A stretch of 55,222 nt of DNA from a virus. Taxonomy: Duplodnaviria; Heunggongvirae; Uroviricota; Caudoviricetes. The DNA lies in IMG/VR virus record IMGVR_UViG_3300039452_000031. One strand, given 5' to 3'. Of the stretch, positions 8,274 to 40,537 are shown piece by piece. The notes below the pieces were generated by a model. That model searched no databases. It was not told where the DNA came from and saw only the letters and a list, made by a program, of their open reading frames with translations. Both the position numbers and the translations under genes were made by a program. Position 1 is the stretch's first letter. Each line of letters starts with the position of its first letter.

Positions 8274-8500
8274 TCGCTACCTCCAAGAGGCATCCTTTCA
8301 GGATCGTAGGAAATATGTCGAGCGTGATTCATGTATTTCCTACACCCTGGACATGGAGTTTCAGATACGGTAGTAAACCGACCTTCGTGAATCACGCTCT
8401 TGGTTAGACTACGGTAGACCATACCGCATTTGCATTCCACCTCATGTGGTCCGTACTTGCGAAGAGGTTCCCAGTCAATCTGCGGGGTGGTCATTGGCAT
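8270..8500 (-). CDS. Small Zn-ribbon protein
   Basis: CKC...CPGC cysteines; AAGGAG upstream (the ATG at 8494 is better spaced). Confidence 0.65.
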   Translation of the reverse strand: MPMTTPQIDWEPLRKYGPHEVECKCGMVYRSLTKSVIHEGRFTTVSETPCPGCRKYMNHARHISYDPERMPLGGSE

Positions 8501-33069: not shown

Positions 33070-33959
33070 AGCTCCACTCCTTGTTGTTTAGCAGCCTTAG
33101 AGGGCTCGTCATCGTCCTTGAATTCCCAATACGGACTATCTTCGGCTGTCAGCGAGAAGACCTTCACCTTTACCAGCTTCGAAAGCAGCGGTCTCACCAA
33201 CTCTATAGCCCTCAGGCCTGCGTCGTCACCATCGAAGGCCAAGATGACGGTTTCGGCGCCAGTCATCTCAACTAGCTTGGACTTGGTCTCGGACCACGAC
33301 TGCGTCCCTAAGATAGCTATCGCCGGTATACCGTAAGATAGGAGACGCAACGCGTCACGCGGCCCCTCAACCAAGACCACTACCTTAGGTCGATTGCGAA
33401 CCGCGTGGTCATAGGGGAACAGTCCGTAGCGCTCGCTCCACTTGCCAGAGGAGTTGATGTACGAAGGCCGCCCATCTTCCTTCTTCATGCGGGCCGTGAT
33501 GTGGCCCCGAAGGTTGCCCTTGATGAAAACCGGTAGGTAAATGAATACCTTGCCGTAGGAGGATAGGGCCTTCTTACCACCTAGGTCATGTAGAAGGGCG
33601 GTACTTATGCCCCGCCAGCTCTTGCCTTCGGGGAGCCGTGAGTAGGTGTAGGTAACCTTAGGGCTTCCTTCCTTCTCCTCTCGGAGAATGGGGCGTGCGA
33701 ACTGCTGAGTCGGTGGAACGTATGTGAAGGGTTGGAGCCCTAGCTTGGGGGCCAGCTCGTCCCACTTGGCGGTCTGACCACACCCATAACATTTTCCAAA
33801 CCCAGGACTTTTGGAAGCCGAGGAGTGGAAGATGCGGAAGGAGGGCGTGCGTTCTGAGTGATAAGGGCAGGTAACAAACGTTGAGTCACCTACGCGTTTC
33901 TTCTGACCTGTGTAGCGATCAAGCTGATTGAGGATAAAATCAAGGCGACGAAGTTCCAC
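32997..33959 (-). CDS. dnaG: DnaG-type DNA primase (Zn-binding and TOPRIM domains)
   Basis: CPYHSERTPSF...CYGC; VEGPRDAL and AFDGDDAG; GGAG upstream of the GTG at 33959. Confidence 0.92.
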   Translation of the reverse strand: MELRRLDFILNQLDRYTGQKKRVGDSTFVTCPYHSERTPSFRIFHSSASKSPGFGKCYGCGQTAKWDELAPKLGLQPFTYVPPTQQFARPILREEKEGSPKVTYTYSRLPEGKSWRGISTALLHDLGGKKALSSYGKVFIYLPVFIKGNLRGHITARMKKEDGRPSYINSSGKWSERYGLFPYDHAVRNRPKVVVLVEGPRDALRLLSYGIPAIAILGTQSWSETKSKLVEMTGAETVILAFDGDDAGLRAIELVRPLLSKLVKVKVFSLTAEDSPYWEFKDDDEPSKAAKQQGVELWDPCSMPLKKVKDLKALIDKYSD

Positions 33960-34551
33960 GGAACAATCTCCGCTCCAAGGCATTGAAGCCCAAAAGGGTT
34001 GATGCGTGGGTTTGCCCCCACTTGTGCCATTTATAGACTAGGGTTTCGATGCTGAAGAACAGGGCGTCGTTCTCAAGCTTCGGGAACCTGTAGATCAGAA
34101 ACCTTAGGGGGTCGGTATCAAGAAGGGCTTGAAGATCGGATTCCTCTGTGGCCCACACGACATAGCAGGTCTCAGTATGTTGGTCTTGGACTCCCAAGAC
34201 AAAGACTTCAGAGGCGGCGACGAGAGCGAGACTCACATAGTTGGAGGTGTTGAGGTTCACGACCAGACCACGAAAGCCAGCATCACAGCCTTCGAGAAAA
34301 GCCCGTAGTTTCTCCTGATAGTTGGCACCCTCGGAGGCATCAACTGTGGCCATGAAGTCGGTGAAGTTCCCAAGGTCTGCACCATTCTCAGTCAGAAGCA
34401 GGACCTGCTTGTTACGGGTCGGGATGGAAAGTTTCCGACTAGCCCAGCCCTCGACATCGATGCCGCAGATGCCGCGACCCCAGTCAGCGAAGTGAGTGAA
34501 GGTAGGCAACGGCATCCGAGCTTTACCACTAAGAGAAAAGAAGCCTCTCAT
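33940..34551 (-). CDS. Hypothetical protein
   Basis: ORF in the replication operon, TAATG-coupled to the upstream gene. Confidence 0.65.
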   Translation of the reverse strand: MRGFFSLSGKARMPLPTFTHFADWGRGICGIDVEGWASRKLSIPTRNKQVLLLTENGADLGNFTDFMATVDASEGANYQEKLRAFLEGCDAGFRGLVVNLNTSNYVSLALVAASEVFVLGVQDQHTETCYVVWATEESDLQALLDTDPLRFLIYRFPKLENDALFFSIETLVYKWHKWGQTHASTLLGFNALERRLFRGTSSP

Positions 34552-34922
34552 TAGTGACTCCCTCTGATAGGGAACAACGTAGGTGTTCCAGTGGCTAGCG
34601 TACCGCCGTACGCCATGGTCAGCTCCAGAGGATGGTCAGGATCCACTGTGTTGAGGAACAAGTGGGCGATCTCCTCCTTGAGTCCTTTGGCACGAATCGG
34701 AACACACTTGATGAAGGTGCTATAGACCTCGGCTGGGAACTGGTGCATCTCGAAGCCCACCATAAGGTCGAGTTGAGCGATAAGAAACTGAAAACCTCCC
34801 GGAAGGTCGATTGCCATACCGCAGTAGACCTTGCTCAGACTAAGGTTCTCAACGATCCAGTAGTTGGTTTCCCATTCCCTATACGACCACATCGCCGATT
34901 TCCTTATATAGATCCACCCCAA
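34551..34922 (-). CDS. Hypothetical protein
   Basis: ORF overlapping the end of the polA C-terminal fragment. Confidence 0.6.
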   Translation of the reverse strand: MGWIYIRKSAMWSYREWETNYWIVENLSLSKVYCGMAIDLPGGFQFLIAQLDLMVGFEMHQFPAEVYSTFIKCVPIRAKGLKEEIAHLFLNTVDPDHPLELTMAYGGTLATGTPTLFPIRGSH

Positions 34923-35928
34923 GCAAAGGGAACCTATCGTTCAGAAGTTTCCGAACCTTCTTGTTCTTCCACGGCTCCATGATGGTGGCCATGATTTCCT
35001 CTTTGTTGCCGGTTAGGAGTTTGAGCTCCAGACCTTCAGTGACTGCCTTATCTAGATGGGCTACAAGCTCAGGCAAAGCCCATCCCCACTTGTGGCTAAG
35101 GGTGTCCTTGACGCCGACCTCAAGCTCAATCTCAGGCTCGATAGTGAACTTGAGACCGAATTCCTTCTCGTAGGTTTCTGCTATGCCGTAAGTGGCGTCA
35201 TACTGAAGGATGTGGATGAAAGGCAGAACCATAGCGTAGGGAACGCTTAGGTAGATAGCGTCGTGAACGATACGATTGAACTTGATTGGGAACTCACCTT
35301 CGAGGCCCAGCAACTCCTTAAGCTCCTCAAGCGTGTCGTAATAGGAGAGCATCATCATCCGCGAGGCCTTGACTGAAACCTCCGAAGCGAAGCCTTGAAT
35401 AGGTGCGTTCATACCTCGACGAACTTGACGGGCGACAATCTTCTTGTCTTCCGTCATGGCTGCGTATAGGTGCCGAATCTTGCCCAAAGGCGAGAAGACG
35501 TAGAACTTCTCCTTAGCCATCGTAGACATGCGCTCCAACCATTTCGCGCCATTCTGAAACTCAGTCATGAGCTTGTCGATGATTAACTGAGCCTTTTCAG
35601 AACGATCCTCCTCAAGAAGAGCCTCATATTCGGCTTCCAGTTTCTCAAGTGTTGCCGTATCTTTAGCTTTATGGGCCTCACCCATCTTGGCCTTCAAAAC
35701 ATCCAGCTCGGCCTTCTTGGTATCGTTACCAAGAGTTTCCGCCCCTTTGCCGTAGATGACCCCGAAGACCACAGCTTTCACAGCATCACGAAGGGGGTCA
35801 GACTTTTCGACCCACTTACCAAAAAAGCGCTTCACGTTCTGAATGTGAACGTCGCCTTCCTTTTTAATACGGTCTGTCAAAGCCGAAGCTATGAGAACAA
35901 GTTTTGCAGCTTTGATAAGGGAGCTCAT
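34879..35928 (-). CDS. polA: Family A DNA polymerase, C-terminal fragment (motifs B and C)
   Basis: GDVH, motif B RDAVKAVVFGVIYG, NAPIQG and motif C IVHDA; the ATG at 35928 overlaps the endonuclease stop. Confidence 0.9.
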   Translation of the reverse strand: MSSLIKAAKLVLIASALTDRIKKEGDVHIQNVKRFFGKWVEKSDPLRDAVKAVVFGVIYGKGAETLGNDTKKAELDVLKAKMGEAHKAKDTATLEKLEAEYEALLEEDRSEKAQLIIDKLMTEFQNGAKWLERMSTMAKEKFYVFSPLGKIRHLYAAMTEDKKIVARQVRRGMNAPIQGFASEVSVKASRMMMLSYYDTLEELKELLGLEGEFPIKFNRIVHDAIYLSVPYAMVLPFIHILQYDATYGIAETYEKEFGLKFTIEPEIELEVGVKDTLSHKWGWALPELVAHLDKAVTEGLELKLLTGNKEEIMATIMEPWKNKKVRKLLNDRFPLLGVDLYKEIGDVVV

Positions 35929-37049
35929 GACCTTTTCCGTTCTGTAGTCGAGTTGACAAGTTTTAGAAGCCCCTTCTTGGAAAAGTCTTCCCACCAGAAA
36001 TTGGGTAAGGTAAAGAATTTGTCCTCTTTACCAATTTGGCAGTGTATGACCCAACGAACCTCAGGACCGTATACCTTGGCTTTACGAAAGTTACGCGATA
36101 GATGGTCTACCTTTTTCGATGCCCCTGTCAGTGTCCAAGTGTTCTTGCATTCGACGTACAGGTCACGATCAGGTAAATAGAAGTCGGGAAAGCCACCTAC
36201 CTTGAAGAAGGTATCTTTCGGATATCCTAGACTGAACGGTGTGCAGACCCTTTTAAATTTGACGATAAGCCTAACTAGCATTGCTACTTCAGAAGAGCCT
36301 TGAACTGTATACCGTTTACCTTCGACAACTACAACTCGATTAAGTTTAACGTTTTTCTTGCGGAAGACCTCTAAGGATTGAGATGGGTTATTTACGCCAT
36401 ACCTTTTTAGGAAAGTCCTAACTATCTTACGTCTTACGGACGGTATACTGAGTACCCTTTCGACTCCATAGCGCTCCATATTAGTTCGTTTTTGGTTCTC
36501 ATGGGCCTCCGGTATGTACATAGCATTGGTGACACCGTGCTTATCTAGCACCCCCTGTACATGAAGGTGTTTACCTTTAGTGGTCTTCATCGGATGATCG
36601 GCACCCCAGGCTTCTAGATTGTTCCTTTTTGTGGTCTCTTGGATCTCCAATACCTGCTGCGGTGCTCTGATGCCTTTACCGTGAATGACCTCAAACCGGT
36701 CCCCACGAACTTCGTAACCTCTACGGCGCCTCTCTGCAAGAAGCGAAGAATCTCGGGAACAGCACGAATAGCACAGACCATGCTGCACTGGTAGGGTGTA
36801 GACCTCACCGCAGCTGTCGCACAGGTGATCGTGTATTAAGGCCTCTAGACGTTTTCTTGGGGATTGAGACCGAGTGATTTGGGTAGCAACTATAAACCAA
36901 GCAAAAGCTTTTGGATGATTAGCCTCAAGCTCCTTGAAGAAACCTGCGATACTTTTGCGGGTGGTTGACCGATCGTTTACCCTGTCCAGTTGGGCCAAAA
37001 GTTTCTTGGACTGGTGCCGAACTAGATGAACAAATTCCGACTTCTTCAT
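35925..37049 (-). mobile_element. Free-standing homing-endonuclease-like gene (PD-(D/E)xK) inserted in polA
   Basis: C-terminal PDFYLPDRDLYVECK; repeated (Y/H/W)G..N/H DNA-binding-type modules (RYGVER, RYGVNNPSQ); CxxC clusters; visibly more AT-rich than its flanks. Confidence 0.8.
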
Positions 37050-39175
37050 TGCTTACCTTTAACGTAGGCCTCAAGCTTTGCCTTATCTTCTGGGGATAGA
37101 GGGAGCTTAGTAGAAGAGATTAGCCCCGCCACGTGTAGGTCATTAAGAGCCTTGTCTAGACCAATGATCTTTATCCACTCCTGTCTCAGCTTCTGGCCCA
37201 CACGGAAAACGGAAGCCAACGCCTTGTCGAAGGCTACAATGGACCACCCACGAATTTCATGACTACTGTAGTCAAAACGTATGAGTAGATGACCGTCTTC
37301 AGTGACGAACATCTCCTTGATGATCTTCGCCAGCTTACCACGGTTTGGAATGTTCTGAAGATTGGGATCGAATGAGCCAAGACGACCTGAGTCGACACCG
37401 AAGAAACCGTAGTCAGCACGCAGGTGTGAGTCAGTTGCACCGTCGAGGTCTCGAAGCTTTTTGTACCAACCCTTGACGTATGTGGACAGCAACTTGGACG
37501 ACTTCTGGTACTCACCAAACTTGGCGACCAAGAAGTTGCGGTCCTTGTAGTGGTCGATGAAGGACGCGTCGATGGCCGGTGCGCCAGTGGCTGTCTTCTT
37601 CCTCGGAGTCAAGCCCATGATGTCAACAAAGAGCTTGATCTTGTGTGCCGCTTTGTTGAAGCTAAAGGTCCAAGACTCAGAGACCTTGCCTCCAATGGAG
37701 CCAAAGATCGACTTGGCTTTGAAACCCGTATCACCTAAGAGTTCCTTGTTGGCCTTCCGAACCTCAGGGAACTGCTTAAATTCCTCACCCAGCTCGGCCA
37801 ACGTTTTGACCAGGGGTGAATCACTGTTCATCAGCGACTTCAAGTACCGGCGATCTACCTTAGAGCCCGCGTCTTTCAGATGCGATAGCTGGTGCACCGT
37901 ATCCGACATTTGGTACAGCATGTGTCGGATGAAATACTTGGTATAAGGCTTACCGTTCAGGTCCTGCTTGGCAGCACGTCGAATCTGTTGGTATCGGATA
38001 TGATGGAGAGCACAGGCATCCATCGAACCGTATTCTAGGAAGCCCTTATCGGAGGGCGACACTGAGCCGGTGGTCGATCGATCTTCCTTGCCAAATGTTC
38101 GGTCCTCAGAGAGATAGAAGTCACAACCGTAGGAAGCTAAGACACCCATCAAGCCATTGATGCCCTTGCCGAGCAGAGGTGCTAGACCGTTGACGTTCTC
38201 ATCCAGGTCGTGCTCGCCGGCCATGATTTCCCATACACGATGGCGAATGATTGGCACACCCAAAGCTCTACGGATAATGCGGAGATCGAAGATGCCATTG
38301 AAGGTTAGGAGAAGCTTTGTCTCTCTGGACGCAAACTTCTTGGCCAACTCGCGCTTGATGTACCGCCGCTCCTTCTCACTAAAGGGGTTGTCCTCGTGAG
38401 GGTGATCGATGGGTAGGACGTAGCCGGAAGTAGGCAAAGGTCCGTCGTTCTTAGCGAACGCGAACTGAATGGTATAGATTGCGTTGTGGAGGACTGAGAG
38501 GTTTCTGGTCTCGGTGTCGACCGCAATCGAGTCTGCCTCGTCCCAGTAGCGCAAGAGCTTCTTGAACTTCGCAATCGTGTTCACGTACCGAGGGCGGAGT
38601 TCGATTTGACCAATGTCGTGGGGATTGCGACCTAGCAGGAGGTTGGCTAGATTTCGGCACCATAGGCCAAGAAGGTTGGCGTTCGCACCGTCCTTTTCAA
38701 GAAGCCGGGCGAAGTCCAACGTAGACGTGACTTTGCGTCCGTCAAGAGAGTGAACCCAACCATTCTTAAACGCCGCGTGTTTGATCTGCGGATATAGCAG
38801 TTCCAAGTCACCGGAGAACAAGATATGAGTTGGATTTAGTTTGGCGATCAACTTCTGCGCACGGGCCTTGAACTCTGATTCCGCATCGGATCGAGCCGAA
38901 CCTGATAGGTCAAGGTGCTTCCGGGCCTGATAGTTGATGACCGCGAAGGCAGGACTGCCGATGTCTCCGTAGAGCCGTGCCCACTTCTTCGCGTATGCCA
39001 GAGCCTTGGACAAATAAGGCTTGGAGCACAGCTCCCGCTCCTTCAGATCCTCTGAAGGAACCGTCTGCAGGATGATAAGCACTCGCTTGGAGGCGTCCTT
39101 ATACCCGCTGTCGGCCTTTAGTCGAAGGTCGTAGCCCCCGTTGGAGGGAGGTGAGGGGAACGTTGTGTCTAGCAT
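37046..39175 (-). CDS. polA: Family A DNA polymerase, N-terminal fragment (extra N-terminal domain, 3'-5' exonuclease, thumb, motif A)
   Basis: Exo I AVDTET, Exo II FNGIFD, SGRLGSFDPNLQNIP and motif A FDYSSHEIR. Confidence 0.9.
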   Translation of the reverse strand: MLDTTFPSPPSNGGYDLRLKADSGYKDASKRVLIILQTVPSEDLKERELCSKPYLSKALAYAKKWARLYGDIGSPAFAVINYQARKHLDLSGSARSDAESEFKARAQKLIAKLNPTHILFSGDLELLYPQIKHAAFKNGWVHSLDGRKVTSTLDFARLLEKDGANANLLGLWCRNLANLLLGRNPHDIGQIELRPRYVNTIAKFKKLLRYWDEADSIAVDTETRNLSVLHNAIYTIQFAFAKNDGPLPTSGYVLPIDHPHEDNPFSEKERRYIKRELAKKFASRETKLLLTFNGIFDLRIIRRALGVPIIRHRVWEIMAGEHDLDENVNGLAPLLGKGINGLMGVLASYGCDFYLSEDRTFGKEDRSTTGSVSPSDKGFLEYGSMDACALHHIRYQQIRRAAKQDLNGKPYTKYFIRHMLYQMSDTVHQLSHLKDAGSKVDRRYLKSLMNSDSPLVKTLAELGEEFKQFPEVRKANKELLGDTGFKAKSIFGSIGGKVSESWTFSFNKAAHKIKLFVDIMGLTPRKKTATGAPAIDASFIDHYKDRNFLVAKFGEYQKSSKLLSTYVKGWYKKLRDLDGATDSHLRADYGFFGVDSGRLGSFDPNLQNIPNRGKLAKIIKEMFVTEDGHLLIRFDYSSHEIRGWSIVAFDKALASVFRVGQKLRQEWIKIIGLDKALNDLHVAGLISSTKLPLSPEDKAKLEAYVKGKQ

Positions 39176-39202
39176 TGGAACCTCTAAGGGTCGTCAAACT
39201 CA

Positions 39203-39212
39203 ATATTTACTG
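39203..39212 (-). promoter_or_regulatory. Putative phage promoter motif CAGTAAATAT upstream of polA
   Basis: Intergenic, about 28 nt upstream of the ATG at 39175. Confidence 0.5.
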
Positions 39213-39300
39213 TTCGGGCTTGTGCGGCGGGAGACCTCGGCCGTCAGTCAAGAGCCATTACCGAGGACATAAGCCCTGTCTTACGAGAGCGCACCCCATG

Positions 39301-39522
39301 TCAGAGATCCTTGAGTGCGGTTTTGAGATTGTTAAAGAAGTGGACTCTGTCGGCGTCGCTGGGAGCTTTAAGGCCCACCCGTTGGGCGAAGGTTTGAACG
39401 TCGAGATCCTCTTCTGTGTACTGACATTGGTGAGTCTCACGATGCTGCCAGTAGCAGTGTCCCTTCTGAAGAGGACAGGTAGAGACCACGATGTCAGTCT
39501 TGACGGCCACACAGTAAGTCAT
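39301..39522 (-). CDS. Small Cys-containing hypothetical protein
   Basis: ATGA overlap at 39519-39522. Confidence 0.6.
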   Translation of the reverse strand: MTYCVAVKTDIVVSTCPLQKGHCYWQHRETHQCQYTEEDLDVQTFAQRVGLKAPSDADRVHFFNNLKTALKDL

Positions 39523-39782
39523 TTCCCATTCTCCTCGATATCTGGACTCCAAGGATCGGCACAAATATGACCTTCAACCTCCTTACCGTCCTTTAGGGCT
39601 TTGAACTTGAACTTCCAGCCAGACTTGACCATCCAGCAGCACATAATGCAAGACTCGACCTCAATTGGCTTGTAGCCGTTGGCCTCCAAAAGTTTTCGAG
39701 CGTCCTTATCAGTCGGCAGCATGGCTAGCCCAATAGCAATGCCGATCAGGGCCACGACCAGAATGACGGTCTTCTCCCTCAT
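39519..39782 (-). CDS. Small membrane-anchored protein
   Basis: N-terminal hydrophobic helix VILVVALIGIAIGLAML; ATGA overlap. Confidence 0.65.
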   Translation of the reverse strand: MREKTVILVVALIGIAIGLAMLPTDKDARKLLEANGYKPIEVESCIMCCWMVKSGWKFKFKALKDGKEVEGHICADPWSPDIEENGK

Positions 39783-40492
39783 GGCCGACGTGCCGGGAGC
39801 CAATCCGGTGCTGAGTTGCCAATGTCGATCACCACCTTGTTGGAACCCTCAGCAATCCTGGGCGCAATGTACTTACCAGCCGGACCTCCGGAGAAGAGCA
39901 CAAGCTGGTGACCGACATCCCGAGCCTTGGCGATAACGTCCTCAGTTTGTTCCCAGGAAGAGAGACGGATAAAGTTCATCTTGAAACGGGTGACCCTCTT
40001 CTGGAACTCATCGGCTAACTCAGCGGAGGAGTGAATCAGAGTCACACCCTCGGTCGCCTCATAGAGTTCTTCCTTCTGGGCGGCAGTCCACTGATTGACG
40101 AAGAAGTTGTCGACCAGCTTGGCGGTTATACTGCTTGAGCGCCAGCCCATATAAGGTAGGTCGATCTCGAACGTCGAGTTTGTCAGGCCACTGACTGATG
40201 GCGCAAAGAACGTAGAGTCCGTCATCGCGGTTCGCATACGGGTCAGCAGCTCCACCTTCGGAATGTTCCACAGGCCCATGCGCTTGAGCCATGTCTCTGG
40301 ATCCTTGACGAAGGGTAAGGTAGTCAATTCCTCAGGCAGGGAATCGAAGTGCTTGACCAATAGAGCCTCACCGTCACCCATGCGAGTCACCGACAGCGGT
40401 GTCAAGGTACGCAGGTGATGGGCAACGATCTGGTAGAAAGCAGAAGGGGCAATGGTGTAGACGCATCGAAGATATTGAGCATCAGTTAGCAT
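39779..40492 (-). CDS. GT-D fold (DUF1792-like) glycosyltransferase domain protein
   Basis: SVTRMGDGE and GGPAGK...VIDIGN match the RxGDGE and IDIGH signatures of GT-D. Confidence 0.75.
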   Translation of the reverse strand: MLTDAQYLRCVYTIAPSAFYQIVAHHLRTLTPLSVTRMGDGEALLVKHFDSLPEELTTLPFVKDPETWLKRMGLWNIPKVELLTRMRTAMTDSTFFAPSVSGLTNSTFEIDLPYMGWRSSSITAKLVDNFFVNQWTAAQKEELYEATEGVTLIHSSAELADEFQKRVTRFKMNFIRLSSWEQTEDVIAKARDVGHQLVLFSGGPAGKYIAPRIAEGSNKVVIDIGNSAPDWLPARRP

Positions 40493-40537
40493 GGTTAGGT
40501 CCTGAGGTTAAGTTGAGTTATGCAGAGCCGCGGGTGT

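Follow-up and report, generated by a model that had tools for sequence, protein, structure and literature searches.

A family A DNA polymerase gene of a phiRSL1-like phage interrupted by a probable mobile endonuclease cassette that has neither intron nor intein

We analyzed a bacteriophage family A DNA polymerase gene (polA) that is distributed over three successive open reading frames (ORFs) in IMGVR_UViG_3300039452_000031, a Caudoviricetes record of the IMG/VR database. The stretch of DNA under study, hereafter the window, is 55,222 nucleotides (nt) long and comprises the first 55 kb of this 136-kb virus record, which is ~58% complete. On its minus strand, an N-terminal polymerase gene (polA-N), a free-standing gene for a putative endonuclease and a C-terminal polymerase gene (polA-C) follow one another, with a C-terminal extension on polA-N (the tail) and an N-terminal extension on polA-C (the head) at the break (Table 1). 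As argued below, we consider it likely, from sequence comparisons and structural models, that this is an endonuclease cassette which contains no intron and no intein and which leaves a working polymerase made of two chains. The nearest cultured relatives of the phage are Ralstonia phiRSL1, Burkholderia BCSR5, BcepSauron/Saruman and Achromobacter Motura, all of which are jumbo phages, and the best relative of the window polA is only 61-62% identical to it at the amino acid (aa) level.

Both polymerase genes belong to family A (PF00476), with motif A on polA-N and motifs B and C on polA-C. The Pfam profile DNA_pol_A matches polA-N at aa 514-661 (E 1.4e-21; a match to DNA_pol_A_exo1 lies below the cut-off of that family) and polA-C at aa 16-234 (E 1.8e-17). 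Since profile positions 40-184 fall on polA-N and positions 175-346 on polA-C, the two genes are complementary halves. The polymerase is one ORF of 1050-1075 aa in phiRSL1, BCSR5, BcepSauron and Motura; by tblastn, polA-N is 45-48% identical to these ORFs, and polA-C is 46-52% identical to the C-terminal third of the single-ORF relatives. The gene order polA, one to three small genes, primase is common to the window and the single-ORF relatives. This comparison with uninterrupted polA had been proposed in a preliminary description of the locus, and it places the break in the loop between motif A and GD(I/V)H. The same description had polA-N end shortly after motif A and polA-C start before GDVH and motif B, in agreement with the ORF and motif positions, and its claim that the ORFs are chained by exact ATGA overlaps, each ORF with its own start and stop, was confirmed on the bases themselves. 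The start of polA-C is the ATG at 35928; a GTG at 35994 is also open, and the ATG form is the one that relatives conserve. An AAAGG-type Shine-Dalgarno-like run is located close upstream of both ATGA starts, that of the endonuclease gene and that of polA-C. A sigma-70 promoter and terminator scan revealed nothing above chance inside the three-ORF region, and the candidate promoter word of this phage genome has no copy within or just upstream of the polA region; we assume that the three ORFs share one transcript.

Table 1. Features of the interrupted polA locus and of related loci. Positions are those of the window unless a related locus is named.
Feature	Position	Strand	Description
polA-N gene	37046..39175	-	709 aa + stop; N-terminal region, 3'-5' exonuclease, thumb, motif A part of palm
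Middle (endonuclease) gene	35925..37049	-	374 aa + stop; free-standing ORF
polA-C gene	34879..35928	-	349 aa + stop; GDVH, motif B, motif C
ATGA overlap	37046..37049	-	polA-N stop and endonuclease gene start (bases inspected)
ATGA overlap	35925..35928	-	Endonuclease gene stop and polA-C start (bases inspected)
Motif A, DYSSHEIR	37250..37273	-	polA-N aa 635-642
GDVH	35845-35856	-	polA-C aa 25-28
Motif B	35743-35790	-	polA-C aa 47-62; FGVIYGK at aa 55-61
Motif C, VHDA	35257-35268	-	polA-C aa 221-224
Tail, C-terminal extension of polA-N	37046..37171	-	aa 669-709 + stop; assigned to the cassette
Head, N-terminal extension of polA-C	35863..35928	-	aa 1-22; assigned to the cassette
Nuclease domain of endonuclease gene	35928..36350	-	aa 234-374; D289 36183-36185, E300 36150-36152, K302 36144-36146
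Between polA pieces, window, L046, L053			DUF7487 gene, same strand
Between polA pieces, L006, L043, L044, L047, L048			DUF7487 gene, 347-412 aa, opposite strand
Between polA pieces, P0002 contig			167-aa truncated DUF7487 copy, nuclease domain only
Between polA pieces, L042			94-aa endonuclease remnant
Upstream junction, window, L046, L053			ATGA overlap (window, L046); adjoining stop and start, no overlap (L053)
ORF-less group I introns in polA	L043 3673-3908; L042 8594-8817; L044 5803-6017; L046 4535-4765; L052 7133-7364; L054 1569-1789		RF00028
Fused relatives			P0004, P0009, P0013, P0053, P0054, P0058, P0037, P0063, P0092

A set of 66 unsplit relatives has 120 invariant residues, of which the two polymerase pieces keep 118. 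Of the 158 residues that are at least 90% conserved in these relatives, the pieces keep 150; the unsplit polymerases themselves have a median of 6 such changes, against 8 here, which is typical for them. The two changes at invariant columns are a conservative Arg to Lys and an Ala to Ser in motif A. On the polA-C side, R47, K51, F55, G56, Y59, H222 and D223 are invariant in 10 split relatives. Synonymous sites are saturated at this distance (the nearest relatives share ~60% protein identity), and retained function was gauged by invariant residues and branch lengths; the branches of split lineages are no longer than those of their unsplit sisters. The split persists after decay of the endonuclease gene in L042, and a second polA or a PolB was not found in the 136-kb record.

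As the preliminary description had suggested, we predicted the structure of the two-chain complex, using polA-N aa 430-709 and polA-C, each supplied as an alignment. The interface score ipSAE was 0.85, 0.85 and 0.83, and the best control scored 0.00; of 80 solved complexes, 58 attain the mark set for this score, as do 2 of 110 mismatched pairs. The runs agree in at least 87% of contacts, with a partner pLDDT of at least 82. Predicted error is lowest for the contacts between the motif A strand (N 628-632) and the motif C hairpin (C 227-231), which form the native palm sheet; therefore, much of this good score can stem from likeness to solved single-chain Pol I structures, and the model speaks for likeness rather than for binding. 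The confident interface comprises residues 663-677, 679-680, 683, 685-686, 691-693, 698, 701-702, 704-705 and 708 of polA-N, and extends over residues 3-25 of polA-C, with head residues 3-22 all included. The tail positions in it follow a helical-face pattern that includes L701, Y704 and V705. The short additions that the preliminary description had seen at the break are real; they are conserved helices (see below), which the complex model places in the predicted interface.

To see how widely this arrangement occurs, we searched each polA half against 5.8 billion proteins, and many relatives of each half were found at 55-62% identity. Thirteen N-fragments (693-715 aa) stop at the same site, after a conserved GQxLRQxWIK; their tails are related and have a K(L/F/Y)PL(S/T)xE helix in common. 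Likewise, 10 C-fragments begin 25-37 residues before GD(I/V)H with a related helix. The DUF7487 genes between the pieces (Table 1) encode proteins of three lineages that are ~25% identical to each other, the lineage of the window being 49-50% identical within itself. We mapped the split state on a maximum-likelihood tree of 117 polymerase cores, where it is scattered, requiring 12 changes for 13 rows, a value that 202 of 500 random label shuffles do as well as. Split and unsplit forms are joined by short branches in the sister pairs P0040/P0038, P0005/P0015, P0055/P0053 and P0059/P0064. At the nucleotide level, positions 2197-3588 of L043 (1392 nt) replace 62 nt of L052, with flanks that are 77% and 81% identical, and this cassette consists of a tail of ~46 codons, the endonuclease gene and a head of ~22 codons. 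These sequences show the arrangement to be mobile and recurrent among the relatives, occurring in at least 13 metagenomic ones, with three DUF7487 lineages and in both orientations. Such presence/absence polymorphism with clean boundaries was found in the relatives; for the window itself, a break in the GC content at third codon positions (GC3) alone supports mobility.

Cassette types also co-vary in their parts. The window, P0002, P0003/L046 and L053 share a long tail with the element AG(L/I)I..KLPL, a head with A(A/K)(L/V)(V/I)L and a same-strand endonuclease of one lineage, and the polymerases of these carriers sit at different places on the tree. A co-conversion signal near the cassette was sought among these carriers, and the rise of identity in the last 120 residues proved equal to that against non-carriers, so that no such signal is present. 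The carriers agree in one polymerase residue, namely, Ser638 of polA-N (window 37262-37264), which occupies the fourth position of motif A. DYSSHE occurs in 3 of 117 relatives, exactly those that carry the window-type cassette (the window, P0002 and P0003/L046), and DYSAHE in the other 114, the nearest tree neighbors included; a fourth carrier, L053, which was read separately, has DYSSHE as well. The Ser codons differ among the carriers (AGT, AGC and TCC), which points to selection for Ser rather than to one shared DNA tract. It is possible that this Ser confers self-immunity against the endonuclease, or that it is an adaptation of the split enzyme.

The extensions at the break amount to ~41 aa on polA-N and ~22 aa on polA-C, compared with ~13-20 aa at this place in unsplit relatives, and the tail has no counterpart in unsplit relatives with the minimal loop. 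Their composition differs from that of the polymerase: GC3 is 0.65 in the N core, 0.46 in the tail, 0.48 in the endonuclease gene, 0.36 in the head and 0.62 in the C core, and G or C occupies 27 of the 63 third positions of the two extensions, where the composition of the polymerase cores would predict a fraction of ~0.64, a difference of ~3.5 standard errors by normal approximation. On the basis of this composition in the window and of the clean boundaries in the sister pair L043 and L052, we assign tail and head to the mobile cassette, with which they came; they did not arise in place. The head is conserved as a helix in 10 split relatives. Furthermore, 9 unsplit relatives (the fused relatives in Table 1) bear 39-69 residues at this loop, which read as tail and head joined in frame, and one of them, P0053, is a near tree neighbor of the split P0055. 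An AlphaFold2 (AF2) model of the fused P0013, built from a 66-row alignment (pLDDT 90.2, pTM 0.89), shows the insert as a loop, a helix (680-689), a turn (690-693) and a second helix (694-712), with pLDDT 85-95 and located directly before GDIH. The tail is homologous to the first helix of this helical hairpin and the head to the second; the split genes break at the turn.

The middle ORF matches Pfam DUF7487 (E 1.1e-22) and, at E 4e-11 and 1e-8, two PHROG families that bear the annotation homing endonuclease, and its GC content is 0.46, compared with 0.53 for the window. DUF7487 has 8767 representatives at E up to 0.001, and our literature search found no paper mentioning it; its members often have 3-7 repeat stretches in proteins of 400-1100 aa. 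According to an AF2 model of the 374-aa protein (pLDDT 90.4), N-terminal helices that include a Cys-rich element are followed by four or five helix-loop repeats (aa 126-231) and an alpha/beta domain (aa 234-374). Within the latter, all 30 homologues compared share D289 and E300, and nearly all have K302, in the context PDxxxP...ExK. When this domain was compared with 48,161 chains using VIA-align, the best matches were all restriction-endonuclease-like folds, with TnsA at the top (Z 6.6, root-mean-square deviation (rmsd) 3.7, 107 residues aligned), followed by Vsr (Z 5.8), tRNA-splicing endonucleases, I-Ssp6803I (Z 5.0, rmsd 3.9, 93 aligned) and Hjc resolvases (Z 4.8), although Z scores in this range can arise from a common arrangement. 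Foldseek gave no match in the PDB at E up to 0.001, with weak rows to the influenza PA-N endonuclease, and a PDB sequence search with the endonuclease profile returned nothing meaningful. Sequence motif and model together make the middle gene a probable homing endonuclease of the PD-(D/E)xK type.

An intron or an intein was looked for in several ways. An Rfam scan of 33500-40500, with E up to 1 and permissive filters, matched no family, and neither did a scan of the whole window at the gathering score. A AAGATATAGTC-like P7 element, with up to 2 mismatches allowed, was not found in 34879-39175, and no intein or Hint family of Pfam matched any of the three proteins. These results agree with the preliminary description, in which neither intein ends nor a group I P7 element had been seen, and the covariance-model search for a group I or II intron core across the insert, which it had named as a possible refutation, came out negative with positive controls at hand: the same scan detected group I introns (RF00028) at 57-72 bits (gathering score 50) in six related loci. 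The introns of the relatives sit inside motif B, between FG and (V/T)LYG, where the window has none, and the split site in those six relatives has no Rfam match. L046 serves as a within-locus positive control, since it has the cassette type of the window plus a detectable intron. The apparent third polA piece in the intron-bearing relatives is an exon, owing to the group I intron in motif B, and the protein-level break occurs only at the split site. As a side observation, L053 and L054 encode an identical endonuclease protein but differ in the presence of the motif B intron, the presence of which thus varies even between very close genomes. Opposite-strand endonuclease genes in five relatives leave less than 50 nt unassigned, so that an intein is excluded and an intron core would not fit there.

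These data bear on three explanations in which the locus would be something other than a functional two-chain gene. If a group I or II intron carried the endonuclease ORF, a spliced mRNA would yield one full-length polymerase, and such introns do occur in polA of this clade; moreover, phage polA is a classic intron host, e.g., in SPO1 and T7-like phages, as cited in PMC8351571. However, in addition to the negative scans of the window, the stretch 35863-37171 is entirely coding between exact ATGA overlaps, tail and head are conserved as peptides and are translated in frame within the protein of fused relatives, and the opposite-strand genes of five relatives leave too little sequence, so we regard an intron as very improbable. 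Tail and head could instead be the halves of a split intein whose trans protein splicing ligates the two chains, as phage metagenomes hold fractured genes with a free-standing endonuclease between split-intein halves (PMC2677866). Yet ~41 aa and ~22 aa are too short for known split inteins, the tail starts without Cys/Ser, the head ends without His-Asn plus Cys/Ser/Thr, no Hint or intein family matches, and the fused relatives keep the same peptides in the mature protein as a helical hairpin, which makes this explanation the least probable of all. A decaying pseudogene, with the polymerase inactivated by the insertion and replication performed by another enzyme, would be conceivable in that such an enzyme could lie in the missing part of the ~58% complete record. 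Against this, both pieces are open and their retained invariant residues include those of motifs A, B and C, at least 13 diverged lineages retain the split without evolving faster, L042 even after its endonuclease has decayed, and relatives carry a single polA, with no polA or PolB paralogue in the 136 kb of this record; we deem it improbable, if a little less so than splicing of either kind.

A different question is whether tail and head contribute anything, or whether the halves reassemble via the native polymerase interface alone, with tail and head as tolerated leftovers that have no role in assembly. The native contact of palm and fingers indeed makes up most of the predicted interface, the polymerase of this clade splits elsewhere too (see the third break point below), and the heterodimer of the Aeh1 ribonucleotide reductase NrdA did not require its tails, which arose with the insertion and are essential for activity (Crona et al. 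2011, PMC3045599). On the other hand, tail and head are conserved within a cassette type although the polymerases of its carriers are only 55-62% identical, they are kept after endonuclease decay (L042) and after fusion (P0013 and others), their hydrophobic faces lie in the confident part of the model interface, and the forms with the third break point have coiled-coil-like ends as well. We find the leftover explanation rather unlikely, albeit far from negligible, and give about even chances to the proposition that tail and head are needed for assembly or activity. Several points weigh against our preferred explanation, an endonuclease cassette yielding a working two-chain polymerase. The cassette boundaries in the window itself rest on protein alignment and composition because there is no close relative; the fused hairpin forms may be healed splits or, the other way round, an ancestral landing pad; the precedent of Aeh1, where the tails serve activity and not mutual binding of the pieces, means that "clasp" may misdescribe the helices; the case for an endonuclease is built on how its family is annotated, on the conserved D..ExK motif and on fold scores that are middling (Z 5-6.6); and, given the ~58% completeness of the record, a second polymerase could lie elsewhere in the genome.

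Under the preferred explanation, the cassette would have replaced a short surface loop in the fingers of a phiRSL1-type family A polymerase, between motif A and GD(I/V)H. It consists of a ~41-codon tail in the frame of the upstream half, a DUF7487 endonuclease gene and a ~22-codon head that gives the downstream half a new start. The three ORFs would probably be translated from one transcript, coupled at the two ATGA overlaps, and the polymerase would be two chains, of 709 aa and 349 aa, which come together again with neither RNA nor protein being spliced. In the model, the palm sheet is completed across the chains, with the motif A strand from the N chain and the motif C hairpin from the C chain, and the helices of tail and head would lie against each other at the place of the helical hairpin of fused relatives. 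During co-infection, polA alleles that lack the cassette are presumably cleaved by the endonuclease, whereupon repair would copy the whole cassette in. The reading of the preliminary description, a polymerase in pieces with no intron or intein, is supported in each part that sequence and models can address. The sequences demonstrate the layout of the locus, that it has neither intron nor intein, that the arrangement recurs and moves among relatives, that tail and head stem from the cassette, and that the polymerase residues are intact; co-translation, assembly and activity, the need for the helices, and the activity and target of the endonuclease are what we infer here. Going one step further, we suggest, tentatively and at somewhat less than an even chance, that DUF7487 cassettes bring along a portable two-helix "stitch", by which their insertion into an essential polymerase does no harm, that in-frame loss of the endonuclease leaves the hairpin in the fingers, and that the motif A Ser reflects self-immunity or adaptation. 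If this is true, the two-helix stitch would join introns and inteins as a third general solution, in line with what Crona et al. proposed for NrdA.

Further arrangements were observed at and around polA in the relatives. An AP2-HNH endonuclease domain of ~185 aa is inserted in frame at the same fingers loop of a single polA ORF in P0012, P0089, P0106 and P0111 (L015 5908-9663). These relatives have no Hint domain and no Rfam intron, and the branch between P0012 and the insert-free P0010 is 0.005; the endonuclease is there an internal domain of the polymerase. A third break point is located in a variable coiled region between motifs B and C, where polA consists of two genes with no gene between them (L027 ~8320-8330, L029 ~8290-8300; P0064, P0077, P0083, P0086, P0090, P0097, P0102, P0104, P0105, P0116 and P0093). 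Stop and start are adjacent or overlapping there, e.g., TAATG, and both ends are coiled-coil-like; this break point may be a hit-and-run scar. In BcepSauron (L004 2425-3000), an annotated HNH endonuclease gene adjoins the start of an intact polA; the polA neighborhood attracts free-standing endonucleases in cultured relatives too.

With this well-documented natural case, the replicative polymerase of giant phages probably joins the few essential enzymes that a selfish gene has divided without loss of function and without any splicing of RNA or protein. As intact, decayed and fused states of the cassette are found in many lineages, its life cycle can be read from sequence. A break, a hairpin and even an in-frame domain of 185 aa seem to be accommodated at this permissive site of family A polymerases, a property that may be of use for split-polymerase engineering, and DUF7487, an uncharacterized family with thousands of members, gains a testable role as a homing endonuclease. 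For annotation, a two-piece polA in phiRSL1-like phages should not be called a frameshift error or a pseudogene.

The kind of event is already established by mobE in nrdA, MobA in a topoisomerase gene and the split PolB gene 43, so that a principle is widened and nothing is overturned. What is new is the host, a phiRSL1-type jumbo-phage polymerase, the endonuclease family (DUF7487, probably PD-(D/E)xK), the occurrence in both orientations, and the structural support, from models, that the two extensions represent a helical hairpin cut at its turn. Other split polymerases that we considered turned out to be different: the one in the jumbo-phage review of Iyer et al. (PMC7824862) is Pol III alpha, and the one in the MIJ3 paper (PMC6892783) is a PolB with an intein. 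The annotation of the OM43 phages MEP401/402 has two polA genes separated by a small ORF (PMC10580990), but no homology is known for this inserted ORF, and the authors of that paper did not settle on a mechanism. The split gene 43 (43A/43B) of the Aeromonas phages 25 and 44RR (Petrov et al., in the summary given by PMC2988022) is, like the present case, a phage replicative polymerase in two genes, with an endonuclease gene between them in some phages only, and according to that summary its pieces co-purify and are active; it differs in belonging to family B, in an unrelated split site and in a seg-type GIY-YIG endonuclease.

Closer parallels are provided by two other systems. In phage Aeh1, mobE is inserted in nrdA (Friedrich et al. 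2007, as cited in PMC2988022), so that, as with the probable homing endonuclease gene here, a free-standing homing endonuclease gene splits an essential gene of DNA metabolism at a conserved region, without intron or intein and with unique insertion-derived tails on both pieces. The present case concerns a family A DNA polymerase instead and a probable endonuclease of the DUF7487 / PD-(D/E)xK type rather than of the MobE-type HNH, and its cassette is found repeatedly, in many lineages and either orientation; for Aeh1, it was demonstrated that the enzyme is active and needs its tails, whereas both are presumed here. The MobA element splits the large subunit of the T4-type topoisomerase II into gp39 and gp60 (Manning and Atkins 2022, bioRxiv 10.1101/2022.08.31.505936). 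No translational bypass element is present in our case, the endonuclease is of another family and lies on either strand, and the extensions are shorter, ~41 and ~22 aa. In that preprint, the MobA element is nevertheless described much as we describe the polA cassette, namely, as a defined unit that brings an endonuclease gene between a C-terminal and an N-terminal extension, with overlaps out of frame, inserted repeatedly at one site in place of a short host stretch, with tight pairs of genomes that have or lack it, with decay or hit-and-run loss of the endonuclease while the split is kept, and with fused forms.

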